DNA from: Deltaproteobacteria bacterium | GTDB taxonomy: Bacteria > Desulfobacterota > Syntrophobacteria > BM002 | Reading direction: 5' to 3' | DNA length: 64,000 nt | NCBI GenBank assembly: GCA_037384945.1 | Contig: JARRNM010000013.1 | Coordinates: forward strand, 1,321-65,320 | Part shown: in pieces, positions 7,540 to 37,801 of the stretch | Position numbering within the stretch: position 1 is the stretch's first letter | Layout of the letters: each line of letters opens with the position of its first letter | Notes under the pieces: model-generated | The model's database searches: none | What the model saw: only the letters and a program-made list of their open reading frames with translations | What the model was told of the DNA's origin: nothing | Position numbers and translations under genes: made by a program

Positions 7540-7773
7540 CTATGGAGCAGTGAGCCGCTCGAGCCCCAGTTCTCCACTCAGGGCCTGCAAGAGAGACTCC
7601 AGGCTGTCCTGGCGTCCCGGTGGCACTGCCAGTTGGATTAAACCTGTCTTAGAATTCAAAGTCGTCAGTGTTGCTAGCCCTTCGTAGGCTTCCAGAATAA
7701 ACTTAAGATAGTGAATCTCATAAGGATCGATCCGGTAGAACAGCAGGTCTGATCGCTTTAGAACAATGGCCAT
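7540..7773 (-). CDS. Hypothetical small protein (77 aa)
   Basis: ORF with reasonable codon usage. No recognisable motif. Confidence 0.35.
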   Translation of the reverse strand: MAIVLKRSDLLFYRIDPYEIHYLKFILEAYEGLATLTTLNSKTGLIQLAVPPGRQDSLESLLQALSGELGLERLTAP

Positions 7774-7914
7774 TGTTTACCTCACGCATCCTGTGTCGTC
7801 ACGTTACCATTTTTGACCAGTGGTTACAAGGGTCATGCCCAATGTCTCGAGGCGCTACGCTGTTCATCCAGAGCCATCGAGCTTTTCTCTAACAATGTTC
7901 AGTCCGGTGATGGC

Positions 7915-8010
7915 CAGTCCGTTGTCGGTAGTCCGTGGTCCGTTGCTTAAAAAAAGAGATCCGAGTTTCACTTTGCAAGGGACAACCGACTACGGACAAC
8001 GGACCTACCC
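7915..8010. repeat. Intergenic hairpin repeat, family B (GTAGTCCGTGGTCCGTTGC ... GACAACCGACTACGGACAACGGACC)
   Basis: GTCCGT-type motifs shared with 1175-1210, 1540-1575, 36120-36160, 46100-46145 and 49665-49780. Confidence 0.55.
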
Positions 8011-20050: not shown

Positions 20051-20368
20051 ATGGCTACCATTCCCAACAAACGTTTTTTCAAAATTGGAGAGGTCAGTCG
20101 AATTGTCGGCGTTCCAACCCATGTTCTCCGCTATTGGGAAAGGGAGTTTTCCCTGGTCAGACCTCGAAGGGCTCCATCAAAGCAGCGGATGTACAAACGA
20201 AAAGATGTTGAGATGCTCCTTTACATAAAGAAGCTGCTGCATCAGGAAAAATTCACCATTGCTGGTGCCCGCAAAAAGCTGCAACCAGCCTCCGCCCCAT
20301 CTTCACCCCACCAGACTTTAGAGGAAATCAGGCAAGAACTGATTGATCTCCGCCGCATGTTGGATTGA
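20051..20368 (+). CDS. MerR-family transcriptional regulator (small, HTH only)
   Basis: HTH FKIGEVSRIVGVPTHVLRYWEREF typical of MerR. It sits downstream of pheT, as in many proteobacteria. Confidence 0.7.
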   Translation: MATIPNKRFFKIGEVSRIVGVPTHVLRYWEREFSLVRPRRAPSKQRMYKRKDVEMLLYIKKLLHQEKFTIAGARKKLQPASAPSSPHQTLEEIRQELIDLRRMLD

Positions 20369-20553: not shown

Positions 20554-20949
20554 ATGGATCTCGTCTTATCCAAAGAAGCAATAGACAACATCATCAATGT
20601 TCTCGATGAAGATCTTCTCCGGGGTGGAGCTGACTGCGTTCTTTTGGTTGACCGCTCAGGCAACCTCATTGTCAACCGAGGCGATCCTGCTAATCTCGAC
20701 GTTGTGGCCCTAGCTGCGCTTTCCGCCGCCAATTTTGGCGCCACCGCCGAAATTGCTAAGCTAATTGGAGAAGATGACTTCGCCCTTCTCTTCCATAAAG
20801 GCAAGAATGAGAACATCCATTTCACCAAAGTGGGGAAAGGCTTCATCCTCATCACTCTATTTGGCAAGGAAGTCTCCCTGGGACTGATTAGATTGAACAC
20901 CGCGAAAGTCACCGAGACTCTGATACCTATTCTGGGCGGAGAGCAGTAA
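20554..20949 (+). CDS. mglB: Roadblock/LC7-domain protein (MglB-type GTPase-activating protein)
   Basis: Roadblock fold sequence LLVDRSGNLIVNRG...AALSAANFG. It ends 2 nt before mglA. Confidence 0.8.
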   Translation: MDLVLSKEAIDNIINVLDEDLLRGGADCVLLVDRSGNLIVNRGDPANLDVVALAALSAANFGATAEIAKLIGEDDFALLFHKGKNENIHFTKVGKGFILITLFGKEVSLGLIRLNTAKVTETLIPILGGEQ

Positions 20950-20951
20950 CT

Positions 20952-21563
20952 GTGTCATTCATTGATCTGAGTAAAAATGAAGTACAGTGCAAGATTGTCT
21001 TTTATGGACCTGGCCGGGGGGGTAAGACTACCAATCTACTCTACCTGCATCAGGCTATGACCGAGGCTGTTCGTGGCAAGATGGTTACCATCGATACCAA
21101 GGGTGACCGTACTCTGTTTTTTGACTTCCTACCCTTGGCACTCGGTAAAATTCAGGGACTGAGCATCAAGATCCAGCTCTATACAGTTCCCGGACAGGTC
21201 ATGTACAATGCCACCCGTAAACTAGTTCTCAAGGGCGTAGACGGCATTGTTTTCGTGGCCGATTCTCTAAAAGTTCAAAAAGAGAAGAACATGGAGAGCC
21301 TCGAAAACCTGAGACAGAATCTTGCTGAGGACAACTTAGACATCAAAGAAGTCCCTCTTGTTCTTCAGTTCAATAAGAGGGACCTTGGCGGTTCCAACAT
21401 TCCCATCCTCACCCTTGATGAGATGGAACAAGACCTGAATGGGGAACTCCAAGTACCTTGGTTCAGCGGCAGTGCATTAAAAGGCGACGGTGTGTTTGAA
21501 ACGCTTAGAGAGATCAGCAAGCGCACGGTCAAATACGTAAGCCGTAAGCTTTTATCTCGTTAA
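20952..21563 (+). CDS. mglA: Ras-like small GTPase MglA
   Basis: CKIVFYGPGRGGKTTN, TLFFDFLPL, YTVPGQVMYNATRKL, NKRDL. Near-identical motif set to Myxococcus MglA. Confidence 0.85.
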   Translation: MSFIDLSKNEVQCKIVFYGPGRGGKTTNLLYLHQAMTEAVRGKMVTIDTKGDRTLFFDFLPLALGKIQGLSIKIQLYTVPGQVMYNATRKLVLKGVDGIVFVADSLKVQKEKNMESLENLRQNLAEDNLDIKEVPLVLQFNKRDLGGSNIPILTLDEMEQDLNGELQVPWFSGSALKGDGVFETLREISKRTVKYVSRKLLSR

Positions 21564-21592
21564 AAACCCTCAGTTGCCAGAAGGAGGGGCAC

Positions 21593-23986
21593 ATGGATTT
21601 TACCGACGACCCCTTGGCTGGAGTCGATGCAAGCGAACTTGAGGCAGATATCGATAAGGCGATCGATGAGCTCTTCGTAAAAAAGGGTGAAGTTAAAGAG
21701 TCAGTGGTTGCCAAACCGGAAGAACCCGCTGAAGAACCGACACAAGAGCCCAAGGATGAGCCAGCGGAAGAACCCGACTTAGGGGAGCCATCCGATCTCG
21801 TAGATGATCCCCTGGCTGACCTGAAAGAGAGCCTTCTTACCTTAGACTGGGAAATCACCCCAGAGTCCATCAAGACCTTTGAAAAGGAGCTTAATCTTGT
21901 AAGCGACAAGCTGGGTGACGACCGTCACTGTATGGCGGTCATCAAGATGACTTTGGGAGTCATCCAATACCTGCGCGCTGCAAAGGAATCAGCCGCGCCC
22001 ATTTCCATTCAATTCTTGCACGGAGCCACACGAGGTCTTGACATTTTTGTGCGGGAGCCAGCACCCTCAGACTCTGAACGCAGTGAGGTAATGGATAAAT
22101 TACTCGGCCAGTTCAGGCGAGTGAAGGCAGAAATCCAGCGGGTGAAACCCCAGGAAACACCTGAAGGCGTGGAGGAACCCCCGGCAGTCGAACCGACCTT
22201 CGAGCCAGAGCCTGCCGAGGAGCTGATTTTAGAGGAAATTACAGCGGAGGAACCGGAGCTGGAAGAGTTGGCTGAGGAAGCACCGGTCTCTGAAGAGATA
22301 ATAGAAGACGAGCCTATCTTGGAGGAGGTCATACCAGAGATGGAGATAGGGGGTGCTCCATCCGAAAAAGAACCACTAATGGAAGAATTGGTGGGCGAGG
22401 AAGCAGTCGTAGAAGATGTATCCCCGGAAGAACTGGACTTCATGGCGGACCTCGAAGAGGAACCCATTCTGGAAGAACCGGCTGAAAAAGAGCCAACCCT
22501 GGAGGCAACAACTGCCGAAGAATTGACCTTGGATGAAGAGGAGCCAGTAGAACCCGGCCTGGTGGCGGATCTCGTGGAAGAGCCCATTCTGGAAGAGCCG
22601 ACTGAAAAAGAGCCAACCCTGGAAGCAACAACTGCCGAAGAATTGACCTTGGAGGAAGAGGAGCCAGCAGAACCCACCCTGGCGGCGGACCTGGAAGAAG
22701 AACCGTATCTGCCACTAGATCTCGATGAAGAACCCTCTTTCGAGGAGTTGTTCGAGGAGGAAGAGGTTTCCGCGGAAGTGGCCGAAGAAGAGCCACTTTC
22801 TGCCCCCCTTCTGGAGGAAGAACCGGAGGTAGAAGAAGTACTTGGAAAAGAATTGGAGCTGGAAGGACTTTCAGAGGAGGAGCCAGCTCTGGAGCCCATG
22901 CTGGAGGCCGAAGAGATTGCTCCCCCACCCGGGATACCGGCGGGAGAAATACCTCCATCTTTGCAAAATCTCATCCAGGAAGCAAAAGACCAGAGTGGCA
23001 TGCTTGCAGAAGCCGTGTCCAGCCTCACTCAGGAGACTGAAGACTTCTTTGGCCGCATTTTAAAAGCCATGTCTGGCAAGCCTTCACTGGCGAAGTTAGA
23101 AAAATATTTTGGTTCCGCCCACAATAAGTTGGAAGCCGAAACTTTACAGGCCCGAGAGTTATCTGGAAATCTGGTTAGAACCTTGGCCAAACTTGAGAAA
23201 AACCTTGGCCAGCAACAGCCGGAGAAGGCTACACCCCAGGCTCAGGCTGAAATAAGCTCTCAGGTCAAGACCATACAGCATGCCATTGACGACATAAGCC
23301 AGGCTGCCTCCAAATTGCAGCGAAGCCTTACCGGCGTGGCTGGAGCCCCAGTAGCCAGCTACGAGGCCACAACCTCGAAGGATGCTCGCGTGGAAACAGA
23401 AGAGTTTTCTTTGGATTCCGATGACCTCGTAGAATCTCTGGACTCCGAACCGGTACTGGACCTGCTCGAGGAGATTCCTTCAGAACCCCTGAGCCCGAAA
23501 TCTGGCGCACTGGCCACCAGATATCTAGCTGATGTGGCCAATAATACACTGGGAATACCCACGGAGGCAGTCGCCAATGTCTTCAAACTTTCCAAGGGCA
23601 AAGTCAAGGCTGTACGTAAGAGAGGTTACGTCAGACTGGCCGACTTCAAGGGAGCCTTTAGCAGTATCAAGCGGGGAGTTACCGGTCCCCTTGCGGATTT
23701 AAAGCCCAAAGAGCTTAAAAAGATACAATTCCCCCTTGTCAGTCTGCGTCCGGAGACTCTTGGCAGCGATGACACCGAGGCAGTAGCCCCCCCAGTCAGA
23801 GGTATCGTCCTTCTTAGCACCGGTCAGCGCCATGGTGCCTTGCTGACTGACGAATTTATGCAAAGGACGCCCTATGACGTCAAAGGCTATCAGAAAGCCG
23901 GACTACCAGGAGAGGTGAGTGGCACGGCCACTATCGAAGGAGACTTTGAGATCAACGTTATTGATCCGGACTACTTACTTTCTTAG
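21593..23986 (+). CDS. Hyper-acidic Glu/Pro-rich tandem-repeat protein (~800 aa) with a distinct C-terminal domain
   Basis: Two ~40 aa tandem repeats (EEPILEEPxEKEPTLEATTAEELTLxEEEPxEP) at 22430-22700, a long E/P-rich low-complexity core, and a non-repetitive C-terminal ~250 aa. Starts 27 nt after mglA. Confidence 0.7.
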   Translation: MDFTDDPLAGVDASELEADIDKAIDELFVKKGEVKESVVAKPEEPAEEPTQEPKDEPAEEPDLGEPSDLVDDPLADLKESLLTLDWEITPESIKTFEKELNLVSDKLGDDRHCMAVIKMTLGVIQYLRAAKESAAPISIQFLHGATRGLDIFVREPAPSDSERSEVMDKLLGQFRRVKAEIQRVKPQETPEGVEEPPAVEPTFEPEPAEELILEEITAEEPELEELAEEAPVSEEIIEDEPILEEVIPEMEIGGAPSEKEPLMEELVGEEAVVEDVSPEELDFMADLEEEPILEEPAEKEPTLEATTAEELTLDEEEPVEPGLVADLVEEPILEEPTEKEPTLEATTAEELTLEEEEPAEPTLAADLEEEPYLPLDLDEEPSFEELFEEEEVSAEVAEEEPLSAPLLEEEPEVEEVLGKELELEGLSEEEPALEPMLEAEEIAPPPGIPAGEIPPSLQNLIQEAKDQSGMLAEAVSSLTQETEDFFGRILKAMSGKPSLAKLEKYFGSAHNKLEAETLQARELSGNLVRTLAKLEKNLGQQQPEKATPQAQAEISSQVKTIQHAIDDISQAASKLQRSLTGVAGAPVASYEATTSKDARVETEEFSLDSDDLVESLDSEPVLDLLEEIPSEPLSPKSGALATRYLADVANNTLGIPTEAVANVFKLSKGKVKAVRKRGYVRLADFKGAFSSIKRGVTGPLADLKPKELKKIQFPLVSLRPETLGSDDTEAVAPPVRGIVLLSTGQRHGALLTDEFMQRTPYDVKGYQKAGLPGEVSGTATIEGDFEINVIDPDYLLS

Positions 23987-24056
23987 GCCGCCGTCAGCTT
24001 CAACGAACAACCTCTTCTCGTCTTAGGAAATTTATTGCCCGGGGTCCTCTCTGACC

Positions 24057-26210
24057 ATGCAAGCAAATATCAGTAACAACTCCAGCCTCAATGACTTTCC
24101 AGAAATTCAGGAGAAGATTGATGAGGCTGAACTATACCTTACCCAAGGTCTCTTCGACGAAGCCCGTCAGATCTACCAAGATCTCCTGAACGAGGTTGCA
24201 TCCCTTGCAGGACAAGGAGTTGCCGATCCTGCCAAGCTTCAATTCACCAAGAACCGCCGCGCATTCATTCAGAAGCAGCTAACCACTATTGACCGTCTGG
24301 AGGCCGAATTCCACGGGCAGCCCCTAGAGGCCTCAGCAGAAGAACCGGTCGCTCCTCAAGAAGGTAAAGGCAACGCTGCTTTCAATCGGGGACAAGCCTT
24401 CTTGGACATAGGGATGTATGCCGATGCAATTCAGGAGTTTCACCGGGCTGTCGAATTAGGGTATCAACCTACTGAATGCTCTCTCCAGATTGGCAAGGCC
24501 TATATCCAACTGGGACAATATGGGGAAGGCATTCGAGTGCTCCAGGAGGCTTACAAGCGCAAGAATTTAAGCGAGCCTGAAAGAAATCTCGTCCTAGCTC
24601 AGTTGGCCTTAGGCTATGAAACGGCTGGCGACAAGGAAGAAGCACTACAGGTTTATCAGCAACTGGCTGAACGGGATCCCAAGCATTCAACCGCGGCCAA
24701 TAAGGTCAAGACCCTGGCCCAGGAGGGTGATCGCTATTATTTCAATATGGTCAAGCTTCACCTGAAAAATAAGCAGTTTTCCAAAGCGATTAAAACTCTC
24801 AGGCAACTGGAGAAGGAGAAACAGACTTCTCTTGCTGAGATAAAGCCATTTTATGAGCAAATACTGGAGAAAGATCCGGGGAATAATGAGGCGGTTGAGC
24901 AGATCACCATTATTTACCGGCAAATGCTTGACAATGGCAGTGCCGGAGTTGACACCCGGCTTAAGCTCGCCCGCCTCCTTCTTCGGGCCGGTCAGTTCGA
25001 CAAGGCTGCCAACGAGTATCTGGAAGTAATGCTCGAGGACAACCCTTATAAAATAACCGCGCTTAGCGAGCTGGGCGAGTCCCTGTTGGAACGCCAGGAC
25101 TATGACCGCATATTGGAACTCCTTGAAGACGCTGCTCCCTGGGTAGAGTCCCTCGATCCAGGACCGGAAACCCTGAACTACTACATACTGCTCGGAAAGG
25201 CATGTGAAAAGAAAAACCTCTATGACCAGGCGCGCTCCTACTTCCAGCGAGCTGCAGCCATTGATCCCACCCATGAGGCTATTCGGGCCAAAGCTGACAC
25301 CCAGAGCAAAGATCCTCTTGTCTCCCGAGGTAAGGCCCTACTCGCACTCAAAGTGGACGAAAACATCCATTATAAGATTCAAGAGAAAATCGGCGAGGAT
25401 ACGATTCATCAGTTTTTCAAGGTCGAGGAGGTTCCTAGCGGAACTCTGCGCGTTGCCAAGTGTCTTTCTCCCGCCCTATCAGGGGAAATCACCGCGAAGG
25501 ACTTCATGGTCAAATGGGGCTACGAACAAGTGAATATGGAAAATCGCAACGTCACCCGGATTCTGGACGTGGCCGAGAGGAAGGGGCTTTATTACCTTAT
25601 TACAGAGGATTTCGACACTACCTTGGAGGATTTGCTCAAAAAGAAAACCCACCTGTCTATAAAAGAGGCGGTCCGTTTGGCCAGAGCCCTGCTCAACGGT
25701 TTGGCTTATGCCCATTCGCATCGGGGCACCGACGATACCCTGAGAAAGATATTTCACCTCGGTTTAAATCCCAAAAGGGTCCTGATCCGAGGTGAGTTGA
25801 TCAGGGCCAAGATTGCTGATTTTGGCCTCATCTCGAATTTGGCTAGCCAGTTGGGTTTTACCCTGGACTACAAAGAACTCTCTAACTACGAACTCACCTA
25901 TCTGGCGCCCGAATTGTTCAGCCGGGCGCCCACGCGCATGCCGGAAAAAATGAAACAGGCCGCAGACCTCTATTCCTTCGGCCTGGTTTTTTACCGAGCC
26001 CTCACAGGCAAGGTGCCTTTCGAAGGGCCATCACCCGAGGATTTCAAAAAACAGCACAACGAGCAATACCCCGTACCGCCGCGGGTGCATATCTCCAGCA
26101 TTCCTGCCAAACTGGATGAAGCCATTCTAAAATGTCTACACAAGGATCCCAAGAAGCGCTGGCGCACGCCTACCGAGCTGGATCTCGCTTTGGAAAAGAT
26201 TCAAACCTAG
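24057..26210 (+). CDS. TPR-repeat protein with a C-terminal degenerate protein-kinase-like domain (predicted pseudokinase)
   Basis: TPR-like helices in the N-terminal ~400 aa. The C-terminus has VAK, DFG (IADFGL), APE (YLAPELF), DLYSFG and HKDPKKRW motifs. The catalytic loop is HLGLNPKRV instead of HRDLKPxN, and the Gly-loop is degenerate. Confidence 0.7.
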   Translation: MQANISNNSSLNDFPEIQEKIDEAELYLTQGLFDEARQIYQDLLNEVASLAGQGVADPAKLQFTKNRRAFIQKQLTTIDRLEAEFHGQPLEASAEEPVAPQEGKGNAAFNRGQAFLDIGMYADAIQEFHRAVELGYQPTECSLQIGKAYIQLGQYGEGIRVLQEAYKRKNLSEPERNLVLAQLALGYETAGDKEEALQVYQQLAERDPKHSTAANKVKTLAQEGDRYYFNMVKLHLKNKQFSKAIKTLRQLEKEKQTSLAEIKPFYEQILEKDPGNNEAVEQITIIYRQMLDNGSAGVDTRLKLARLLLRAGQFDKAANEYLEVMLEDNPYKITALSELGESLLERQDYDRILELLEDAAPWVESLDPGPETLNYYILLGKACEKKNLYDQARSYFQRAAAIDPTHEAIRAKADTQSKDPLVSRGKALLALKVDENIHYKIQEKIGEDTIHQFFKVEEVPSGTLRVAKCLSPALSGEITAKDFMVKWGYEQVNMENRNVTRILDVAERKGLYYLITEDFDTTLEDLLKKKTHLSIKEAVRLARALLNGLAYAHSHRGTDDTLRKIFHLGLNPKRVLIRGELIRAKIADFGLISNLASQLGFTLDYKELSNYELTYLAPELFSRAPTRMPEKMKQAADLYSFGLVFYRALTGKVPFEGPSPEDFKKQHNEQYPVPPRVHISSIPAKLDEAILKCLHKDPKKRWRTPTELDLALEKIQT

Positions 26211-26333
26211 TTGGCATATCTTACAGCGTTTGAGGGGTAACCGCTCACTTCGATGATCAGGTTGCGGAACTGGAGAAGGAAGTGGCAAAGGGCGTTCTGA
26301 CATTAATTTTCGAGAAAGGAGCTGTAACAGAAA

Positions 26334-26723
26334 ATGGATCAGAATCCGACAGGTGAGATTACATCAACTGAGCTCGCCAGAGAACGCAGTCGGGAAGCTG
26401 CAGAGCGAACGCTCATGGCGTCGGTGCGCACCTCCCTTACGCTCATTGGCTTTGGCTTTGGTCTCGGCAAGTTACATGGGTACCTGCAAGCAGTTGGCTT
26501 GAGAGAAAAAATCGATCCCATCCACAGCACCCTGATTTTCGGACTGAGTTTTATCACCTTCGCTATCCTCGGCCTGTTCGCGGCGGTATTCCAGCATCGG
26601 CTAGTCTTGAGGCGACTTAAAGGGGGCCAGTTTGTCTATGTACCTTCCTGGCCCTTGGAGACAATAACGGCGGTTTTCCTGTTCTTCATGGGCTTGTTTG
26701 GCTTAATTGAACTTTTTATTTGA
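26334..26723 (+). CDS. DUF202/YidH-family small membrane protein
   Basis: ERTLMASVRTSLTLIGFGFG motif and two TM helices. Confidence 0.7.
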   Translation: MDQNPTGEITSTELARERSREAAERTLMASVRTSLTLIGFGFGLGKLHGYLQAVGLREKIDPIHSTLIFGLSFITFAILGLFAAVFQHRLVLRRLKGGQFVYVPSWPLETITAVFLFFMGLFGLIELFI

Positions 26724-27123
26724 ACTGGCAGCGGCACAGTTGATGCTCCACCGCTATATTTTCTTCCCAAGTGAATGAGCTATAAGCAAATGACGGCAGT
26801 TAGCAATCGCCCGTCACCCTGGTCCCGCATCACCGATGAATCGGGATCTCCGCTTCACTCCGGCAAGCTGCGGGATGGGCTCCGGCTGGGATGCAGGTAG
26901 GTCATGCCTTCAAGTCATCCGAAGACTGAATTATTGAACAGTCTGGATTTGCCAAGAGGAGGAATTCCACAATGAATGTCATGGCGGTTCTTACCCAAGT
27001 GGAGTCGGCAACGTTCCTGGTGCGCTGGGCAGCAAGATTTGCTCAAGGGCAGCCATCGGCTTCATCCGTCTCGAGAGTCTGGTAGGTAAGCCGTCATGGC
27101 TCGGTTTAATCGGAAGCCGTATC

Positions 27124-28101
27124 TTGGGCTGGCTGCCGGTTCTCGATGCTGAGGACCGGATCGACTTGTTTGATCGACTTCAGGTGGGTGCCCGGTGGAA
27201 TGTTGATTTCATCATGATGATTTCTTTGTCAACGGCCATTGCCTCTCTTGGATTGATCCAGAATTCTACTGCAGTGGTGATTGGCGCCATGGTCGTGGCC
27301 CCCCTGATGACACCGCTCATTGGCTCAGGGCTCGCTCTTGTCCAGGGAAATACCTCACTTTTTCGTGATTCTCTCAAGGCAATGTGATTCGGGATCGGTG
27401 CGGCTTTGCTCATCTCAATCTTTTTCGGCTTAACTGCCCCCATGGAAGCTTTGACCCCGGAGCTACTTGCCCGGGGAGCGCCTACCCTCATTGATCTGGC
27501 AGTGGCCTTTCTTTCTGGGGTTGCCGCCGCTTATGCCGTGGCCCGACCCTCATTACTGGGGGCCCTCGCCGGGGTGGCAATAGCCGCAGCTCTTGTGCCT
27601 CCCCTGGCAACCGTTGGCATTGCCTTTGCCACGGGCGCCTGGAAAATCTCTCAAGGTGCAGCTATTCTTTTCCTCACCAACCTGGTTGCCATTATCCTCG
27701 GTGCGGCATTTATATATCGTCGCCTCGGTATCCAAGGCACCAGGTTAGGCATCAGGTCGCCTCTGTGGATGCGACGGACGGTTCTCTCTCTGATTCTCAT
27801 CGCAGTGATGTTAACTGCGCCCCTGGGATTCAAGCTGGCCCGGCAACTGCGCGAAGGCCAGACCCGCCCATACACTTTGCCGGTAAGCCTTTCAGTTTAC
27901 CAGGCTATCAAAGAACGCATCCATCAAGAATATGGGGTAACCCTAATCTCTGCCCTTCGTTTTGGGATCAAGAGCGACACTGATGCTGCCATCATCCTGA
28001 GTGCTCAAAAGCCCGTATCCGTGAATCTCTTATCGGATCTCAAACAACTGGTAAACGATAAAATAGGGGAAAATGTTCGCGTGGCGGTTCATGTGCTCTA
28101 G
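27124..28101 (+). pseudogene. DUF389-family membrane protein interrupted by an in-frame TGA (27388-27390). A likely additional frameshift lies upstream near 27080.
   Basis: ORFs 27124..27387 and 27406..28101 are in the same frame and together match DUF389 (…SLKAM*FGIGAALLISIFFG…). An upstream RBS+ATG at 26955 opens a different frame that stops at 27083. Confidence 0.55.
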
Positions 28102-28173
28102 GAAGCAAGAGTTAAACGGACCAAATTTTGATGAGACCGGAGCGAGGGTAACTTATTCGTCAACCGTTATATC

Positions 28174-28340
28174 GTCTCCATCCGGAGACTTGCTTTTCCG
28201 TTGTCATTCTGAGGAGTCCCGCGAATGGCGGGACGACGAACAATCTCGTGGCTATGGGGATTGCGGGAGATTCTTCGCGGAGCTTGTCCTGAGGAAAACG
28301 AAGGGCTCAGAATAAAAATGTTGAGTTTCCGGATGGAGAC
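28174..28340. repeat. Family C MITE-like element, copy 1 (~167 bp). TIR GTCTCCATCCGGAGAC / GTTTCCGGATGGAGAC; internal hairpin TCATTCTGAGG ... CTCAGAATAA.
   Basis: Second copy at 44787-44958, about 80% identical. ORF 28073..28315 inside it is judged spurious. Confidence 0.65.
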
Positions 28341-28661
28341 TATATAGTTCTAATAGTTGATATTCATCAATATTTGACCAATGCTTATCAGGTGTACACT
28401 CGGATGTCTGACTTATCTAGGGTCTGTCTAAGGTCCCGGTGAGTGATTTAACCCGTCCAATCCACACTTTGCTTTGAATACCAAGGTATTATATTCTGGG
28501 TTAAGCTCAGACCATGCGGAGTTAAATGAATATCCCTTTTGATAAAATTTTAAGATGAACTTACAACTTAAATTAGGAATTCAAATGAGAGGAAAATTTA
28601 ACAGCGGAATTTTTTCTTTGCAAGTCTTCTTATAATTCCTGCACTTGGTGAAGAAGTCAAA

Positions 28662-29228
28662 ATGGATATGAATCTCGATTTGCAAGTAAGAAGATTTATA
28701 GAAAGCCATAGAGGCCAGTGGGTGGACTGGAATATTCCCGCAGTTGATGGTCAGGTTCTGTATGATCTTATCATACAGAATAAGTATAAAAAAGCAGTTG
28801 ATATTGGCACTTCCACAGGGCACTCGGCGATTTGGATGGCATGGGCATTAAGCAAAACCGGTGGAGAACTTATTACGATCGAGATAGATGAAGGGCGCTA
28901 TAGAGAGGCCCTGGCGAACTTTAAACAAGCCGGACTCGACGGTTACATCGATGCACGGCTTGCTGATGCCCATGGACTCGTTAAAAAATTGGCAGGTCCC
29001 TTTGATTTTGTTTTTTGTGATGCGGACAAAGAGTGGTATAAGAACTACTTCGTAGCCTTAGCTCCCAAACTCGAAGTTGGCGGCTGTTTTACTGCACATA
29101 ATGTCTCTTGGAGGTCTGATAGAGGCATCAAAGAGTTTCTTGATTATGTACTAAGCTTACCTAATTTCGAGACCAAAATAGACAGGTCCAGCCAACAGAA
29201 CATTTCGATTAGCTTTAAGAAGTGGTAG
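28662..29228 (+). CDS. Class I SAM-dependent O-methyltransferase (caffeoyl-CoA OMT-like)
   Basis: VDIGTSTGHSAIWMA (motif I) and FDFVFCDADK (motif post-I/II). Low-GC gene. Confidence 0.8.
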   Translation: MDMNLDLQVRRFIESHRGQWVDWNIPAVDGQVLYDLIIQNKYKKAVDIGTSTGHSAIWMAWALSKTGGELITIEIDEGRYREALANFKQAGLDGYIDARLADAHGLVKKLAGPFDFVFCDADKEWYKNYFVALAPKLEVGGCFTAHNVSWRSDRGIKEFLDYVLSLPNFETKIDRSSQQNISISFKKW

Positions 29229-29359
29229 TTTTAGGGACAATGGGCCCGAAATTTCGCTAGGAGAGTCCTTGGTTTTGCTATAACTATTGGGTATCACCAG
29301 CCCATCCCCTTCACGGAAGCTCCACATGGTTATACCAAGCTACTATCTCACCAATGGAG

Positions 29360-29557
29360 CTATGCTATTTTAGCTTCAAGCTCTTCTTCTCGAGCATGGA
29401 GAAATAAAGACTCTGCCGCTGAGTCGCTCTGATCTATTTCCAAAAATCTGCTTCTGAGGGCCGGACATTCCAGGAATAGATTTAAGCGCTTCTCCAGGTC
29501 CCCTTTCCTGTATTCCTCCAAAATACTCTCGCTCCTGGTCATTTCTTTATCCTCCAT
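29360..29557 (-). CDS. Hypothetical small acidic protein (65 aa)
   Basis: ORF immediately downstream of the hydrolase gene. No motif. Confidence 0.3.
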   Translation of the reverse strand: MEDKEMTRSESILEEYRKGDLEKRLNLFLECPALRSRFLEIDQSDSAAESLFLHAREEELEAKIA

Positions 29558-30448
29558 TTACTTTATCTTATCCCCCAAGTAATCCAAGGCGCTATTTACT
29601 ACCGAGCTTTCAGTCAGGATTTTTTTGTGACCCAAACGCTCGGTCGTGTGCAATTCAATGTTTGGAAACCTTTCTGAGATCTCTCTGGAATCATCATATG
29701 GGATAGTGGGGTCATTCTTGTCGTGAACTATCAGAATCTTTGAGTCGATTTTTCTCAATAGATTGATCGGGTTGTCTCGCTGCATATTGTAGCCGAACTC
29801 ATCTTCATACTCTTTTATAAGGATTTCATAGATGGTCCGGGGGATACCGACATGATCGAAAAAACCATACAAGACTTCCTTGAGCCTCAAGGCCGGGGCG
29901 ATGAGAACCACTTCCAGGGGATGATTTTCTTTTTCCATGCTGTTGACCACAGCCGAACCTCCCAGGGAGTGGGCAATTACACCCCGGATATTGTAACCAT
30001 CACGAGACCTTATCAGGGCCCTGATGGTGTCGCTAAACTCGAAGTAACTTGATGTTCTCCCCTGAGACTCTCCATGGCCTGGAGCGTCATAGGTAAGTAC
30101 CGAATATCCTCTTTGTATAAGTGGTTCAATAAAGCGATGTAATTGGATCCCCCTGCCGTTCCATCCGTGAGCCAGGAGAACGCCGGGGCCACTCCCCCAC
30201 TTCCAACACTTTACAGCCTTGTCGCTTATAGAAATCTCAAATCTCTCGCCGTTGTCAAGATACTCTCTTTCCACAGGAGTGATTTTGTAGATAGCGGGGG
30301 TGAAGAGCATCCTCTTGATGATTCCTTTCGAAAGACTGGCTGTATGGTTCCAGAGTAAATTGAAAAAGGTGTGAGTAACTTTTTGTCTCAGCTTGTATAA
30401 ACGAACGTTCGTGCTATTACATCCCAATGCTAAAATTTTAGTAGACAT
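29558..30448 (-). CDS. Alpha/beta-fold hydrolase (esterase/lipase-like)
   Basis: HGWNGRG oxyanion region and the nucleophile elbow AHSLGG. Confidence 0.8.
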   Translation of the reverse strand: MSTKILALGCNSTNVRLYKLRQKVTHTFFNLLWNHTASLSKGIIKRMLFTPAIYKITPVEREYLDNGERFEISISDKAVKCWKWGSGPGVLLAHGWNGRGIQLHRFIEPLIQRGYSVLTYDAPGHGESQGRTSSYFEFSDTIRALIRSRDGYNIRGVIAHSLGGSAVVNSMEKENHPLEVVLIAPALRLKEVLYGFFDHVGIPRTIYEILIKEYEDEFGYNMQRDNPINLLRKIDSKILIVHDKNDPTIPYDDSREISERFPNIELHTTERLGHKKILTESSVVNSALDYLGDKIK

Positions 30449-30510
30449 TGTTTCCCTCCTGAGAGCAGATTGCCAACCATAGTGCAGTAAGCAAAAAACG
30501 ATAACAACTA

Positions 30511-31128
30511 TTATTGATAGTTGGCCACGAGTTGATTCAGAGCTTGTTCTTGACGCTTTTTGGTTTCAGAGTCGTCAAGTAATTTGTCATAAAGGTGAAA
30601 ACCAAGCAAAAGAGAATAAAGGTCAAAGGCAAATTGTTCACAGTCCGCATCCTTCCTGAATGCGCCGACCTTTATTGCCGATTGGGCAATACGGCGAAGG
30701 CAATCGATCCAATCGTTTTGTTGACGCAACAAACATTCCCTCACTCTTCCGGGCCTGTCGCTATAGTCTGCGCTGGCCGAAACAAAGATACATCCACCCG
30801 TCAATTGGGAAGTCCAGTCTATCCAATTATTGACCAACGCTTTTATTCTTGGAATACCGGGCTCGGTGTCCAAGGCCGGAACAATGACACTCTTGGCAAA
30901 AACACGGGCAGCGTACTCCAATATTTCAATCTGCAGGTTCTCCTTAGATTGGAAGTGAGCGAATAATCCACTTTTGGACATGTTCATGGCCTTCGCAAGG
31001 GAGCCAATGCTCACACCTTCGAGGCCCAGTTGACTGGCCATATCGAGCCCGGCTTCCAGGATGGCCATTTTTGTCTCTTTCCCCTTTTGCATGTCCAACA
31101 ATATAGTACGAACGTTCGTTTTTGTCAA
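30511..31128 (-). CDS. TetR/AcrR-family transcriptional regulator
   Basis: N-terminal HTH LEGVSIGSLAKAMNMSKSGLFAHFQSKENL. Confidence 0.8.
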   Translation of the reverse strand: MTKTNVRTILLDMQKGKETKMAILEAGLDMASQLGLEGVSIGSLAKAMNMSKSGLFAHFQSKENLQIEILEYAARVFAKSVIVPALDTEPGIPRIKALVNNWIDWTSQLTGGCIFVSASADYSDRPGRVRECLLRQQNDWIDCLRRIAQSAIKVGAFRKDADCEQFAFDLYSLLLGFHLYDKLLDDSETKKRQEQALNQLVANYQ

Positions 31129-31444
31129 GTTTTTTAAAATCCATGAGTTTCCCCAAAAATCAGTGGATCATTCTTCTAAATTCTGTTTAAGAGCCAGTTT
31201 GCCTTGAGTTTGCAAGTGCAAGTTGCTGCTGAGCAACCGCTCCTCACTCTCTCAGCTTTGCGAGGGCCAGCATGAAGATATGGTGCTCACTAAGTAGGAA
31301 TCCTGCCAATAGATGGAGCGAATCATGCCCGTTGTGGAGTAGCTTCCCCGGGGCCTATATCTCTAAAATATTTTTGGGGAAACTTCTGCATTCAAGTCCC
31401 CCGGGGTAATTTCTATGTGGAGGGTGGAGGGGAAAAAGGAGAGC

Positions 31445-32668
31445 TTATTTACGCTTGAGGAAAGACAGGATGCCCTTTCCCTTGCCTTTGCCGTCCTTAT
31501 CAAACCCTTGTTGAAATTGTTCCACCGTTTGAATGATCGAACTAAGGATTGCCCCTTTGAGGTTGGATTTAACCGGGAACTGCTGCCAAGATGAGGCGGG
31601 ATTGGTCAATGCTTGCAGGATCGCCCCCATTTGCTCCTCATTGAAAATCTCCTTCTGCTTGTGGAGGATGGCAAAAATCCAGGCATTGAAACCATTGAGC
31701 AGCTCTTGATTGCTCGGAGTGGATTTAGGTGAACTCCCGAGGATCAGTTTGAGATTCCTTTTGGCATCGCCCCGGCAATCGTAAACTCGAAGAAACTTCG
31801 AGTACTGGGCGGGCACTTGAGCTTTGGCCTCTTCCAGAAGATTTTGAGCCCGACTGCCCACAGTCTTTTCAGTGATCTCCAGTACATTGAGGAGCACTCG
31901 GTGATATATCTGGATAATAGCAGGGGCCTCACTTTTGTCTTCAGAAGTGACTGCCGCCACACTCATGCCTTGTTCAATTAGACCTGAGGAAATTAAGGAG
32001 TTAATCACCCGGTAGACGCTAAACTCATCGTTGCCGCTATCCTCTATTACCTGTTGCACCGTTCGCTTGCCATTGATAAGAGAAATGATGCGCCACTCAT
32101 TGGCGGTCAAGTTCACAGTGTCGCGCTGTTCCTCCACGGACCTGTTGATCTTGAAAACCATTTGTTTATCTGGAATGTTCTTCTTTAGAATACCCCATTC
32201 ATCCACCCGCCGAGTGCCTTCAAGAATGACCTCCATATGGTTCAGCTCTGTGACAAACTCTTGATCCAGATTGAAATCCTGGTCTACATATTCGAAGTCT
32301 CCTTGTTTCCATAGGAACAAGTCGTAGAGAATATCGCGCACCTGTTGATGAATAAACTTCTTGAGTGTTTCAACCGAGATGAAGCCCTTTTCCACCAAGA
32401 TCTTCCCCAGTTTTTCATTTCTTTGTTTGGCGAGAGCAAGGGCTTTCTGGAGCTCTTCGGCTGAGATAATACCTTTGGTGCGAAGGAGATAACCAAGCCT
32501 TACCTCTTTTTGGGTGCCCACTGCATAAACGATATTGCCATTCTTGATGTAAACCCGCACAAGGCGGTCTTGTTCGGCAATGGTGAGGATACCGGTCTTT
32601 TTATCCTGAGCAAGAAGCTGGAGGATACTGGATAAATATAATGTCCCGATATTACCCTTTAGTGCCAT
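31445..32668 (-). CDS. DUF4388 (PATAN-like) domain protein with a Lys/Gly-rich C-terminal tail
   Basis: N-terminal GNIGTLYLSSILQLLAQDKKTGILTI is the DUF4388 signature. Confidence 0.65.
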   Translation of the reverse strand: MALKGNIGTLYLSSILQLLAQDKKTGILTIAEQDRLVRVYIKNGNIVYAVGTQKEVRLGYLLRTKGIISAEELQKALALAKQRNEKLGKILVEKGFISVETLKKFIHQQVRDILYDLFLWKQGDFEYVDQDFNLDQEFVTELNHMEVILEGTRRVDEWGILKKNIPDKQMVFKINRSVEEQRDTVNLTANEWRIISLINGKRTVQQVIEDSGNDEFSVYRVINSLISSGLIEQGMSVAAVTSEDKSEAPAIIQIYHRVLLNVLEITEKTVGSRAQNLLEEAKAQVPAQYSKFLRVYDCRGDAKRNLKLILGSSPKSTPSNQELLNGFNAWIFAILHKQKEIFNEEQMGAILQALTNPASSWQQFPVKSNLKGAILSSIIQTVEQFQQGFDKDGKGKGKGILSFLKRK

Positions 32669-36286: not shown

Positions 36287-37801
36287 TTGTCGTGGCTGCC
36301 GAGGGTGCTTCCTTTATATCCTTCTTTGTCCCGCCTATGGGTCGATATGTCAGTTGATCGCCAACTCGACGACATCACAGTTTTGTTGAGTAACTGTTTG
36401 GATGCATACACGGCAGCCGTCTTTATCTGGGACGACCCTAGCAAGCTCCTTACCCTCCGGGCCTTTCACACTCTGAGCAAGCACATTATCTCCAAGCTAC
36501 GATTTCCCCCTGAAGATGGAGGCCTTATAGGCTGGGTAGCCAAAAACAAGCAGCCACTAACCGTCGATCACTTCGACCGTGACTCCAGAATTCTCCCCTA
36601 CTACGGAAGTGACGAGAACATCAAATCTTTCCTGGCTGTCCCGTTGCCTGGTCCTAGAGGCGTTATTTGCGTGGACAGTAAACGGCAGTATGTCTTCACC
36701 AATAAAGACCAAAAACTCCTCTCAGGCTTTGCAACCGTCGCAGCAAACGCCCTCAGTGCTGAGCGCGAAAGTATGCGCCACCTGCGTCAGCGCCAGCTCT
36801 TGACCTTGTGGCGTCGGGCAGATGCACTGCCCGCTGATACGGACGATCCCGCTCCATATCTAACCCGGTTACTGGATTCTGTCTGTCCATATTTGCAAGC
36901 CAACGCTGGCCTGGTTGCCGTCCCAATCAAAGATGGAGAATTCTTGCAACCGGTGGCCGCATCCGGCACCTTGCCAGCAACACTCCTGAAAAATGCTTAT
37001 CCAGTCGATCAGGGAATCATGGGTTGGATCTATCAGAATCGCAAATCCCTCACTATCCCTAAATTTCGCTCCCCTACTCGTATTCCCTTTCTTTTTGGCC
37101 CCCGAGACGGTATCGGCAGTATAGGTGGCCTGATTGGTATGCCCCTTGCCTGGGAAGCAGAAGAGGTTGGCGGCGTTATGGCCTTTATCTGTCGCACCGA
37201 AGCCAAGTGGGGCAAAGAAGAAATTGGTGCGGTTACCTCGGTGGTGAGGAGAGCTTCCCTGGTTTTACAGAACTTTACCCTCAAACGGGAATTAGCCCTG
37301 GTCCGGAATTTGGATCCCATCACCGAAGTCTGCAACACTGAGGCATTTGATCGTGTACTCCAGAAAAGATTACAACGCTGTCGGGAAAAGGGCACTAGCC
37401 TTGCTCTGGGCATAATTGCGATCCGTGAGTTCGAGGCATTAAGCACTCGAGTTGCTTTACCAGCCCTGGCGGCTCTTCGCCAACGGGTTGCCTCAACTCT
37501 GCTCCAGCGACTCAAGCGAGGACAGCTCATGGGATGTCTCGATCAAGCTCGTTTCGCCCTGTTATTTGAAGATGACGAGGAGAAAGAAATTCGTGAGCAA
37601 CTCCTGGCGATTTCCGTTGCTCTGGATCAGGAGGTGCTGGCACCCTTGGGCGACGCCCCCCGCTTGCAAGCGTCGTTCGGTTTTGCCATCTTTCCTCGAG
37701 ATGCGGCCTCTGCAAATGAACTCTGGACTATGGGCTTCAGAGCCCTGACGGATCAAACACCTAGTATGCCGGTTAGCAGGACCAAGATGAGATCTGCTTG
37801 A
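36287..37801 (+). CDS. Tandem GAF-domain protein with a C-terminal degenerate GGDEF-like domain. The start is probably an internal Met near 36341.
   Basis: Two GAF-like segments. The C-terminal domain aligns to GGDEF, but the signature is GCLDQ instead of GG(D/E)EF. Confidence 0.65.
   Translation: MSWLPRVLPLYPSLSRLWVDMSVDRQLDDITVLLSNCLDAYTAAVFIWDDPSKLLTLRAFHTLSKHIISKLRFPPEDGGLIGWVAKNKQPLTVDHFDRDSRILPYYGSDENIKSFLAVPLPGPRGVICVDSKRQYVFTNKDQKLLSGFATVAANALSAERESMRHLRQRQLLTLWRRADALPADTDDPAPYLTRLLDSVCPYLQANAGLVAVPIKDGEFLQPVAASGTLPATLLKNAYPVDQGIMGWIYQNRKSLTIPKFRSPTRIPFLFGPRDGIGSIGGLIGMPLAWEAEEVGGVMAFICRTEAKWGKEEIGAVTSVVRRASLVLQNFTLKRELALVRNLDPITEVCNTEAFDRVLQKRLQRCREKGTSLALGIIAIREFEALSTRVALPALAALRQRVASTLLQRLKRGQLMGCLDQARFALLFEDDEEKEIREQLLAISVALDQEVLAPLGDAPRLQASFGFAIFPRDAASANELWTMGFRALTDQTPSMPVSRTKMRSA

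Follow-up and report, generated by a model that had tools for sequence, protein, structure and literature searches.

MglA and MglB constitute the best-studied Ras-like polarity switch of bacteria, and the partners of this switch were discovered singly in Myxococcus, where they are encoded at scattered loci. In a 64,000-nucleotide stretch of DNA from a Deltaproteobacteria bacterium (Syntrophobacteria; contig JARRNM010000013.1), here termed the window, a first-pass annotation had described four co-directional, tightly packed genes, and the ORF coordinates (20554-26210), the + strand orientation and the inter-ORF gaps of 2, 29 and 70 nt were all reproduced. The genes encode, in order, MglB, MglA, an acidic protein that we call X and a TPR-pseudokinase. 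We favor, with moderate confidence, the reading that they form a conserved functional unit in which the MglA/MglB switch is combined with two dedicated, non-catalytic signaling scaffolds.

A short MglB and a group-1 MglA

The roadblock/LC7 protein encoded by the first gene (20554..20949, + strand, 131 aa) matches Pfam Robl_LC7 (PF03259, 1.3e-10), and its best NCBIfam match is the MglB equivalog (1.8e-15), although with 57.4 bits this match stays under the cutoff of 200. The gene sits immediately 5' of mglA, as is the case for MglB, with a gap of 2 nt, and the protein is 88-100% identical between loci of the window clade. The earlier naming as MglB stands. The alignment spans positions 6-132 of the 161-position NCBIfam profile, indicating that the C-terminal extension is absent and that this is a short form, in contrast to the MglB of the polarity module.

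The second gene (20952..21563, + strand, GTG start, 203 aa; protein record MEJ2427775.1) encodes a small GTPase that aligns over residues 1-193 with the structures of MglA from M. xanthus (6hjh_A, E 4.5e-61) and T. thermophilus (3t12_A, E 1.3e-54) and shares 54.6% identity with the M. xanthus protein. Group-1 MglA proteins are defined by the P-loop GxxxxGK[ST], a G3 motif TVPGQ that replaces DxxGQ, and NKxD (PMC4316618). All three are found here, in the form of GPGRGGKT (at 19), TVPGQ (at 78) and NKRD (at 141), together with RTLFFDF and SAL. The intrinsic arginine finger lies beside the switch-I Thr in a segment, GDRTLFFDF, that is the same as in the M. xanthus alignment. Thus, the gene encodes an MglA with the Myxococcus signature motifs, as had been proposed, and the mglB-mglA pair, the arginine finger region, TVPGQ and NKRD are common to this locus and the polarity module of M. 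xanthus and T. thermophilus. From this strong homology, MglA is presumed to be the switch and MglB its GAP.

No intrinsic terminators were predicted on the + strand inside the four-gene cluster and the number of promoter-like matches is not above shuffle expectation, which makes co-transcription of mglB, mglA, X and the pseudokinase gene plausible; most likely the four genes are one operon. The spacer between X and the pseudokinase gene (23987..24056, + strand, 70 nt) has a length of 70-71 nt in most loci of the window clade, and the sequence TTGCCCGGGGTCyTCyCTGACC that precedes the ATG is kept across this clade. A canonical Shine-Dalgarno sequence was not found in this spacer, and covariation gives no support for a structure in it.

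The gene order is conserved in unrelated genomic contexts

The order mglB-mglA-X-pseudokinase was found in about 45 non-redundant loci, all from uncultured MAGs or metagenomes. In 39 of 43 loci mglA lies directly 5' of X, MglB is in place in 38 of 39, and the pseudokinase gene lies directly 3' of X in 45 of 49; since the loci were gathered through X or the pseudokinase, these counts describe how often mglBA is found given X, not how often X is found given mglBA. Nearly all loci recovered through X or the pseudokinase carry both genes behind mglBA. Loss of the downstream genes beside mglBA in relatives would speak against a unit; we see the opposite, even where the flanks are unrelated.

Could this order simply be inherited synteny, with mglBA functionally uncoupled from the genes downstream? 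The module of the window clade is embedded in a conserved thrS-infC-rpmI-rplT-pheST-merR ... miaA-mutL-mreB block, and this wider block is also syntenic within the clade. However, the same order is kept between wholly different flanks in L041 and in L045-L069, the loci of the Syntrophobacteraceae type, where none of pheST, merR, miaA or mutL was found. In these distant loci X shares only about 20% identity with the window protein. Maintenance of the module order with unrelated flanks and such a diverged X indicates more than inherited gene order. Furthermore, pheT and merR are absent upstream in L011 and L013, and spacer lengths are tightly conserved. Where DNA has been inserted, as in L008, L001 and the window, it lies at one or the other edge of the module and never within. 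Synteny alone is therefore largely refuted and we regard it as highly improbable.

A second alternative is that X and the pseudokinase share a transcript with mglBA yet act in a separate pathway without contacting MglA or MglB, for example as accessory of a chemosensory array and as adaptor in Ser/Thr signaling. Their link to MglA or MglB is indeed an inferred one, and in the subfamily of L042 and L043 X is found beside a roadblock protein alone, with MglA and the pseudokinase not adjacent. Yet these exceptions still have a roadblock (MglB-like) gene immediately 5' of X, and the adjacency to MglA/MglB is near-universal over deep divergence. In one MAG (L011) a 54-nt deletion even joins MglA in frame to X. 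Taken together, a separate pathway appears unlikely. The fusion is a single case that could be an assembly error.

The conserved neighborhood is not limited to the four genes; it includes a gene for a PATAN-domain (DUF4388/PatA_N) protein, which occurs alongside the module in the two major clades. In most related loci this gene is convergent and lies about 0.2-0.4 kb past the pseudokinase gene. In the window (31445..32668, - strand, 407 aa; Pfam PF14332, 2.1e-33) it is displaced by an insertion of about 5.2 kb. PATAN-MglAB neighborhoods have been noted before (PMC4316618). Unlike PatA, PixE and PixG, the proteins found here are not PATAN-REC proteins; the form of the window clade combines PATAN with a possible wHTH, while the Syntrophobacteraceae-type form combines pentapeptide repeats with PATAN. 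PATAN domains of Synechocystis bind PilB1 and PilC (bioRxiv 10.1101/2021.06.11.447907). Within the window no chemoreceptor or pilus genes were found. In L041 a pilin-like gene precedes mglB, and the remote members L042 and L043 have PilB-like ATPases, PilZ, CheB and CheW nearby.

A TPR protein with a degenerate kinase domain

Profile searches were run for the last two proteins of the unit. The fourth (24057..26210, + strand, 717 aa) matches Pkinase (PF00069, 6.8e-25) over residues 439-703 as well as many TPR models, and its similarity to the structures of PknB and StkP (~1e-17) places it in the protein kinase fold. TPR matches are spread across residues 103-414 of a helical-repeat region (residues ~20-415; 24114..25301, + strand) that is expanded in the window clade compared to ~150-250 residues in other clades; N-terminal regions are shorter in L040, L041, L045 and L053. 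The family of orthologs comprises more than 100 clusters, after which similarity falls sharply to generic kinases.

The kinase domain (residues 436-715; 25362..26201, + strand) was delimited by alignment with S. aureus PknB and the family alignment A1, and it has lost its catalytic residues, in agreement with the initial description as catalytically dead. The segment IVHRDIKPQNILI aligns with IFHLGLNPKRVLI of S. aureus PknB, showing that the HRD Asp and, in the catalytic loop, both the Lys and the Asn are replaced: the loop reads HLGLNPKR, with HRD changed to HLG, Lys to Asn and Asn to Arg. For this pairwise alignment the PDB sequence of PknB was used. Within A1, H567 and L568 are invariant and the HRD Asp position is occupied by G, A, S or C throughout the window clade. 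The Gly-rich loop GxGxxG is replaced by GEDTIH in the window protein, and an invariant Trp487 takes the position of the αC Glu. The β3 Lys (RVAKC) and the DFG Asp (ADFG) are retained in the window protein; in some orthologs DFG reads DLG or DSG. Replacement of the αC Glu by Trp and of the catalytic Asn by Arg is found in every clade. The remaining losses differ, since the HRD Asp is gone in the window clade, while the proteins of L040, L041 and the Syntrophobacteraceae-type loci lack the β3 Lys and the DFG Asp. Hence, judged from these residues, nucleotide binding is possible in the window clade only.

Might the protein still be active as an atypical kinase, with non-canonical residues doing the catalysis and MglA, MglB or X as its substrate? 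The retention of the β3 Lys and, mostly, of the DFG Asp in the window clade would fit such an activity, the C-lobe is very strongly conserved, and MasK provides a precedent of a Ser/Thr/Tyr kinase that is genetically linked to mglA (PMC3546991). However, the HRD Asp, catalytic Asn, αC Glu and Gly-rich loop on which an active kinase depends are all gone in the window protein, and sister clades lack a different set, β3 Lys and DFG Asp. Loss of different catalytic residues in different clades is the pattern expected without selection on catalysis, and we consider an active kinase very unlikely.

Kinase domains of this type are also met in anti-phage defense (PD-T4-6, MADS or BREX-type Ser/Thr kinases), and the PADLOC models PD-T4-6 and mad6 (3.7e-35 and 8.1e-32) and NCBIfam MAD6 (1.3e-26) match the domain. 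These matches are limited to the generic kinase fold, with 93 bits against an NCBIfam cutoff of 460. Moreover, catalytic residues are missing, no other defense component or partner gene was matched, and the gene is a stable chromosomal neighbor of mglBA amid housekeeping genes, so that the chance of a defense function is next to negligible.

X is predicted to be a kinase-less, CheA-like scaffold

The third gene (21593..23986, + strand) encodes the 797-aa protein X, an acidic protein (pI 4.1, net charge -129) that is predicted to be a cytoplasmic scaffold resembling CheA without its kinase domain. It had been described before as a Glu/Pro-rich tandem-repeat protein of about 800 aa. This holds for its composition and its repeat, but X is more than a repeat protein, as P1-like and P5/CheW-like folds are predicted at its two ends. 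The family comprises 128 representative clusters at 50% identity, and its subfamilies are only ~20% identical to each other.

X begins with an amphipathic helix (residues 13-28, ELEADIDKAIDELFVK; 21629..21676, + strand; pLDDT ~85) that carries the family motif IDxxIDxLFVP, contains invariant columns in alignment A2 and recurs as a motif in remote homologs. The helix could serve for docking, and a disordered acidic linker comes after it. Next comes a predicted five-helix bundle with a fold like that of CheA P1 (Hpt) and an LSLDWE motif (residues 72-185; 21806..22147, + strand), in which Trp86 is the sole invariant residue across the family. Helical bundles resemble many folds, a caveat to this P1-like assignment. 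The bundle leads into a disordered Glu/Pro-rich region (residues 186-440; 22148..22912, + strand; pLDDT <50) with 36.5% Glu, 12.5% Pro and a net charge of about -98. It harbors a tandem repeat of 120 nt (40 aa) in 2.2 copies (22443..22704, + strand; TRF score 426, 87% matches), and indels between orthologs, which range from 644 to 808 aa, are restricted to it. Three long helices then form a predicted coiled-coil bundle (residues 455-581; 22955..23335, + strand; pLDDT 78-94), conserved around FFGRILKAMxGKPAL in A2 and with weak fold matches to bMERB and BAR-type helical bundles. The C-terminal domain (residues 640-797; 23510..23983, + strand) is a basic α/β domain (pI 9.3) with a predicted CheW/CheA-P5-like fold and the family motif RGYATLxDFKPxFRSIKxGxxGP.

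Thus, in the predicted structure both the P1 Hpt five-helix bundle and the P5 CheW-like domain of CheA have their counterparts in X, with only helices and disorder between them. Searches of X against Pfam and NCBIfam gave no match to the P4 HATPase_c domain, and P2 is likewise absent. When X was compared at profile level to a CheW and to a CheA P1 sequence, no significant match resulted. Going by the predicted structure, X may be derived from CheA or may resemble it.

A parallel in domain order is CheA3 of R. sphaeroides, a split CheA composed of P1, a 794-aa region and P5, in which the middle region has CheY-P phosphatase activity and the P1 His is phosphorylated in trans (PMC2817712). Both proteins start with P1 (or a P1-like domain), end with P5 (or a P5-like domain), have a long non-kinase stretch between and lack P2, P3-P4 and the ATPase, for X as far as the prediction goes (PMC2817712). 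X could be imagined as a true CheA3-type phosphotransfer protein: a separate CheA4-like kinase would phosphorylate its P1-like domain in trans, a response regulator would accept the phosphate, and a His-Asp relay would feed MglAB. This is quite unlikely. A phospho-acceptor His is not conserved across the X family: His112 is confined to some clades, other subfamilies having N, S, Y, T or D in its place, and lies at a helix start in the predicted structure, and it is Trp86, not a His, that is invariant. In neither candidate mapping, itself not significant, does a His fall at the position of CheA His48, and HATPase or CheA4-like genes are absent from all loci examined. Sequence similarity to CheA3 is not apparent in X, its middle is predicted to be polyanionic disorder and a three-helix coiled coil and not a known phosphatase region, and it is tied genetically to MglAB and not to a che operon.

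Relation to known MglA systems

In M. xanthus, the MglA partners RomR/RomX, MglC, SgmX and Frz are encoded elsewhere (PMC3546991, PMC4316618), whereas the window module encodes two partner candidates in one unit. No such genes lie downstream of M. xanthus mglBA (PMC3546991), and Wuichet and Sogaard-Andersen described group-1 MglA neighborhoods as widely variable (PMC4316618). A published description of an mglB-mglA-X-pseudokinase unit was not found in the literature, in line with the initial remark that this architecture is not a standard one.

Several known proteins share features with the two candidates. The gene next to M. xanthus mglBA, masK (MXAN_1929), also codes for a Hanks-type protein, which is described as a kinase and encoded in the divergent masABK operon with the membrane protein MasA and the lipoprotein MasB (PMC3546991). 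The window pseudokinase gene is, in contrast, co-directional and downstream, its product combines TPRs with a kinase domain that has lost catalytic residues, and MasA-like or MasB-like membrane protein or lipoprotein genes are absent from the unit; the parallel to MasK is an analogy only. SgmX of M. xanthus and Bd2492 of Bdellovibrio are TPR effectors of MglA-GTP (PMC7519303, PMC7668184, PMC3983030) and, as TPR proteins functionally linked to MglA, resemble the fourth protein, but their descriptions contain no kinase-like domain. The NCBIfam SgmX model weakly matches the TPR region (3e-8; 32.4 bits, cutoff 1800), over a generic TPR stretch only, and identity with SgmX was rejected. RomR, another polar partner of MglA, has regions of low complexity rich in Pro and in Glu (PMC2034494, PMC3441718), which recall the 255-residue Glu/Pro-rich region of X. 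Identity with RomR was also rejected: RomR has an N-terminal receiver domain while the folded domains of X are predicted to be CheA-like, and no Response_reg match was found in X, even with E up to 10 on sub-domains.

As a whole, the unit is reminiscent of the actinobacterial conservons CvnA-D. These conserved four-gene units encode, besides an MglA-family GTPase and a roadblock protein, one protein of kinase type and one whose function is unknown (PMC4316618). In conservons, a group-2 MglA (CvnD) is combined with a membrane histidine kinase (CvnA), the roadblock protein CvnB and CvnC, while the window unit combines a group-1 GTPase (TVPGQ, Arg finger) with a soluble Hanks-type pseudokinase and with X, which is predicted to be CheA-like. 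With MglA of group 1 and the histidine kinase absent, an actinobacterial conservon was rejected.

A switch with two proposed partners

From gene order and predicted folds, we infer how the favored four-gene unit might work. X would dock via its CheW-like domain on a polar landmark such as an array of the chemoreceptor type and self-associate through its coiled coil, while its acidic linker, N-terminal helix and P1-like bundle would bring in MglA-GTP together with MglB and the TPR-pseudokinase, the latter acting as an adaptor and not as an enzyme. Such an assembly would set the site of MglA activity. Type IV pili or a chemosensory array are the probable targets of the unit, and the pili could be reached via the co-conserved PATAN-domain protein. 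A bolder, rather unlikely reading is that X descends from CheA and that the phosphorelay was swapped for the GTPase. The P5/CheW-like domain would then insert into a chemoreceptor array, MglA/MglB and the pseudokinase would sit on the P1-like bundle and the acidic linker, and the array signal would be read as level or location of MglA-GTP instead of CheY phosphorylation. If true, this would be a chemosensory pathway with a Ras-like switch as output and without a His-Asp step.

The module packages the switch with two fixed partner candidates that both resemble signaling enzymes stripped of catalysis, a CheA minus its kinase and a Hanks kinase minus its catalytic residues. X and the pseudokinase each stand for a protein family that is new, widespread and without annotation, and a concrete functional hypothesis can now be given for both. 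They also suggest that the architecture of a chemosensory array may be linked to a small GTPase by direct physical contact. The clade-specific loss of catalytic residues makes the fourth protein a natural case study in pseudokinase evolution, and the module as a whole raises the question of which role MglAB plays in Syntrophobacteria.

Results

Four co-directional genes on the plus strand form the cluster under study, mglB (20554-20949, 131 aa), mglA (20952-21563, 203 aa, GTG start), the gene for a 797-aa acidic protein, here termed X (21593-23986), and the gene for a 717-aa TPR protein with a degenerate Hanks-type kinase domain, the pseudokinase (24057-26210). The ORF list has all four where the first-pass annotation had placed them, and the gaps measured from it, 2, 29 and 70 nt, equal those it had claimed. 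The cluster is preceded by pheS, pheT and a MerR-family gene (20051-20368) and followed by a DUF202 gene. A putative co-transcription of the four genes fits the gap sizes, and the terminator scan predicts no intrinsic terminator on the plus strand within the cluster, while promoter-like matches do not exceed shuffle expectation; the promoter and terminator scan as a whole is uninformative. Rfam reports a single tRNA-Val in the whole window and nothing else. Two minus-strand ORFs antisense to the acidic region of X (22009-23028, 339 aa, Ser-rich; 22440-22958, 172 aa, Pro/Leu-rich) were dismissed as genes, being shadows of the GAA/GAG/CCN-rich coding strand of X. A reading of the TPR-kinase gene as part of an anti-phage defence system was likewise rejected.

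The roadblock/LC7 assignment of the first gene holds, with a match to PF03259 at 1.3e-10 and the MglB equivalog as top NCBIfam match (1.8e-15). The latter scores under the model cutoff because the protein stops at profile position 132 of 161, and it is therefore a short form of MglB without the C-terminal extension. MglA aligns over residues 1-193 with the solved M. xanthus MglA (E 4.5e-61, 54.6% identity) and, over the same residues, with T. thermophilus MglA (E 1.3e-54). It had been described as carrying the Myxococcus signature motifs, and GPGRGGKT, RTLFFDF (the switch-I Arg-finger segment), TVPGQ, NKRD and SAL are all present; these are group-1 MglA signatures according to Wuichet and Sogaard-Andersen (PMC4316618). 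The protein is identical to MEJ2427775.1 from a MAG labelled "Deltaproteobacteria bacterium". By homology the pair is a switch and its presumed GAP.

Exact-protein look-ups place all pseudokinases that are 49-56% identical to that of the window in a pheST-merR-mglB-mglA-X-pseudokinase arrangement, followed by a convergent gene with a PATAN domain (DUF4388/PF14332), miaA, mutL, a GAF protein gene and mreB. Orthologues occur in about 19 genomes in a scan of species-representative genomes, all uncultured and labelled Deltaproteobacteria, Syntrophobacterales, Syntrophobacteria, Desulfobacteraceae or Desulfobacterota. Loci found by tblastn have the four genes in order wherever unmasked upstream DNA suffices, and a metagenome scan with the RGYATLxDF pattern of X yielded 35 loci in which HMM annotation recovers mglB-mglA-X-pseudokinase wherever the DNA suffices. 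Since all loci were retrieved via X or the pseudokinase, the counts over non-redundant loci (MglA directly 5' of X in 39/43, MglB upstream in 38/39, the pseudokinase directly 3' of X in 45/49) mean that X and the pseudokinase nearly always accompany mglBA, not the converse. In nearly all loci retrieved in this way the downstream genes follow mglBA, the gene-neighbourhood check proposed at the outset, and they do so in unrelated flanks as well. Exceptions are an N-masked locus (L009), one with only a fragmentary X ORF (L063), two in which the ORF 3' of X has no match to the pseudokinase model (L044, L048), and L042 and L043, a separate subfamily with neither MglA nor a pseudokinase adjacent. 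In both of these loci (L042 9533-13120; L043 9318-13864) a roadblock/LC7 gene precedes an unusually long X homologue, of 1039 and 1287 aa, in which the P1-like LDWE repeat occurs two or three times. Genes nearby encode two PilB-like ATPases, PilZ, receiver proteins, CheB, CheW and a PATAN-REC-CheB fusion; L042 also has a second mglB-mglA pair among its neighbours.

Loci with remote X proteins read merR-mglB-mglA-X (L039), mglA-X-TPR start (L038), pheST-merR-mglB-mglA-X-TPR/Pkinase (L040) and mglB-mglA-X (L044). A further one, L041 (GCA_054038965.1), has two radical-SAM genes and a type IV pilin-like gene (8530-8955; N_methyl, T2SSG), the latter directly 5' of mglB, ahead of mglB-mglA-X-TPR/Pkinase; it is the one locus with the four-gene unit described as standing in a wholly unrelated genomic context. 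In a second large group of loci the MglA proteins fall into clusters that bear the name Syntrophobacteraceae, Syntrophobacter sp. SbD1 among them, and the flanks of these Syntrophobacteraceae-type loci have no pheS, pheT, merR, miaA or mutL. Within the window clade, that is loci related to that of the window, insertions occur in the merR/mglB interval (L001, L008) and after the pseudokinase (window, L006, L008), and never inside the four-gene unit. Spacers are near-constant across loci, at 29 nt and 70-71 nt. The X-pseudokinase spacer (23987-24056 in the window) is 70-71 nt long in most loci of the clade, and its alignment (A8) shows the sequence TTGCCCGGGGTCyTCyCTGACC directly 5' of the pseudokinase ATG, conserved across the clade although the proteins of those loci share just 50-87% identity. 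It lacks a canonical Shine-Dalgarno sequence and could form a small GGUC/GACC hairpin, and no covariation for RNA structure was detected in this spacer. A single MAG, L011 ("uncultured Desulfobacteraceae bacterium", ERP108616_co2_158), has lost 54 nt, comprising the last 14 codons of mglA together with its stop codon and some of the spacer, and this deletion puts MglA(1-189) in frame with X (5285-7930; compare window 21480-21600), while the ribosome-binding site of X, AAGGAGGGG, is kept. This single observation is suggestive; the fusion could be genuine, of the Rosetta-stone type, or could stem from misassembly. Taken together, the four genes are strongly indicated as a conserved functional unit that is independent of its context.

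Earlier work had already noted PATAN genes in the vicinity of MglA and MglB (PMC4316618). In most related loci the PATAN gene lies convergently about 0.2-0.4 kb 3' of the pseudokinase gene. The window orthologue (31445-32668, minus strand, PF14332 at 2.1e-33) is parted from it by some 5.2 kb (26211-31444), and this stretch looks like an insertion because the two genes adjoin in most relatives. Its G+C is 0.476 compared with 0.512 in the flanks, falling to 0.446 at 28.1-31.4 kb, and it contains the DUF202 gene, a membrane protein gene and further ORFs, one of them methyltransferase-like; at the equivalent site, the insertions in L006 and L008 are shorter. Syntrophobacteraceae-type loci instead carry a pentapeptide-repeat plus PATAN (DUF4388) gene on the same strand directly 5' of mglB, in all loci with enough DNA (L045, L047, L050, L052-L054, L056-L057, L062, L066, L067 and L069; for example L053 3613-4764), which is 9/9 after removal of redundancy, and hence have a five-gene unit. 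As a separate observation, a GAF-GGDEF protein adjoins mreB in the window (36287-37801, 37931-38959), a position conserved in relatives, a REC-PAS-GGDEF-EAL protein is encoded at 59896-62079, and Syntrophobacteraceae-type loci have GGDEF and GGDEF-REC-HD-GYP genes soon after the four-gene unit (L053); cyclic-di-GMP genes therefore recur near the unit.

The fourth protein had been read as a TPR protein with a dead kinase-like domain, and this is what we find. Its TPR region spans about residues 100-415 and its Pkinase domain residues 439-703 (6.8e-25), where IVHRDIKPQNILI aligns with IFHLGLNPKRVLI of S. aureus PknB (PDB sequence) and catalytic residues are replaced; in the same alignment the Gly-rich loop reads GEDTIH and DFG is retained. 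Homologues form more than 100 full-length clusters at 45-100% identity, beyond which there is an abrupt drop to E about 1e-19, the level of generic kinases. An 18-sequence alignment has His567 and Leu568 invariant, G, A, S or C at the HRD Asp position, Asn replaced by Arg in all, and an extremely conserved C-lobe, for example KDPKKRWRTPTE. In a wider alignment with distant orthologues, for which M. tuberculosis PknB was the reference, the alpha-C Glu is Trp and the catalytic Asn is Arg in all clades. In the window clade the HRD Asp is gone while the beta-3 Lys and, mostly, the DFG Asp persist; the pseudokinases of L040, L041 and the Syntrophobacteraceae-type loci keep H-L-D and have Gln or Asp at beta-3 and NGG, NQG or YGG for DFG. 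On these losses an active kinase is unlikely. A fold under strong conservation whose clades have lost different catalytic residues in a complementary way shows the pattern expected of a non-catalytic scaffold, and nucleotide binding might be retained in the window clade alone.

X has a pI of 4.1 and a net charge of -129. Glu makes up 36.5% and Pro 12.5% of residues 186-440, which have a net charge of -98, and this region contains a 120-nt repeat in 2.2 copies, which agrees with the earlier description of a Glu/Pro-rich tandem-repeat protein of about 800 aa; a hydrophobic segment was not found. Searches of the whole protein and its sub-domains against Pfam and NCBIfam at E up to 10, and against PDB sequences with phmmer and a profile of the C-domain, gave no meaningful match. 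Among 16 orthologues from related loci (644-808 aa), residues 1-30 and 72-185, the helical middle and, highly so, the final 160 residues are conserved, while the acidic region is highly variable in length. A profile of the C-terminal half retrieved 128 clusters at E <= 1e-3 among 1.84 billion representatives. Members have 350-1287 aa and a common full layout, an N-terminal IDxxIDxLFVP motif, an LSLDWE domain (two or three copies in some), an acidic or Pro-rich linker and a C-terminal RGYATLxDFKPxFRSIK domain; Pfam gave no meaningful match in any of ten members, one of these (P0175) being a spurious Ig-repeat protein, and a word-indexed search with the N-domain alignment added five fragments and no new architectures. 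Database copies are mostly fragments on short contigs, and the 33 metagenome matches (P0120-P0152) are mostly partial. Short-read assemblies probably break at the acidic repeat region, and such breaks may be the reason why the family escaped annotation.

A first AlphaFold2 model of residues 431-797 from a shallow 17-sequence alignment (pLDDT 54) was discarded as too poor, and we used a full-length model from a 91-sequence alignment. It predicts a helix at 13-28 (pLDDT ~85), a five-helix bundle at 72-185 (95-98), disorder at 187-440 (<50), three long helices at 455-581 (78-94), disorder at 583-638 (<50) and an alpha/beta domain at 640-797 (93-97). The top Foldseek matches in the PDB are CheA (6s1k_A 1.5e-5, 1b3q_A 1.2e-4) and CheW (6s1k_C 1.4e-4, TMt 0.58; 8c5v_E), and X is therefore predicted to have an N-domain like P1 and a C-domain like P5/CheW, and to lack P2, P4 and an ATPase. 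Profile comparison with hhalign was not significant either for the C-domain with the Pfam-labelled CheW of L043 or for the N-domain with P1 of E. coli CheA; the CheA-like assignment is therefore structural only, and the end domains are predicted to be CheA-like with the proviso that helical bundles match promiscuously. A phosphotransfer (Hpt) role of the P1-like domain was judged unlikely because no His is conserved: His112 is invariant in the window clade and N, S, Y, T or D elsewhere, Trp86 being the sole invariant residue of the domain. Judged from these sequences, a phospho-acceptor His is not a feature of the X family.

Discussion

The unit is a MglAB system, a known kind, with two fixed partners that are unannotated families. 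The first-pass annotation did not regard the exact four-gene architecture as a standard described unit, and our literature search found no paper describing the mglB-mglA-X-pseudokinase arrangement. In M. xanthus no such genes follow mglBA (PMC3546991), and gene neighbourhoods of group-1 MglA are widely variable (PMC4316618). Actinobacterial conservons are alike in logic, joining a kinase-type protein and one of unknown function to a GTPase and a roadblock protein; their group-2 GTPase and histidine kinase are absent here. The layout of X resembles that of R. sphaeroides CheA3, in which P1 and P5 are separated by 794 residues (PMC2817712), with the two domains far apart and no kinase between them, but X has no conserved phospho-acceptor His and no detectable sequence similarity to it.

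As a hypothesis for the unit as a whole, we propose that X would be a scaffold whose CheW-like domain docks on a chemoreceptor-type array or a polar landmark and whose coiled coil allows self-association, so that its N-terminal helix, P1-like bundle and polyanionic linker could present MglA, MglB and the TPR-pseudokinase. The latter may be an adaptor that binds MglA-GTP or X, by analogy with SgmX and Bd2492, which are TPR effectors (PMC7519303, PMC3983030). Type IV pili are suggested as the output mainly because the PATAN domain of Synechocystis binds PilB1 and PilC (bioRxiv 10.1101/2021.06.11.447907), in addition to the PATAN-MglAB neighbourhoods. The output would reach the pilus motor via the PATAN protein.
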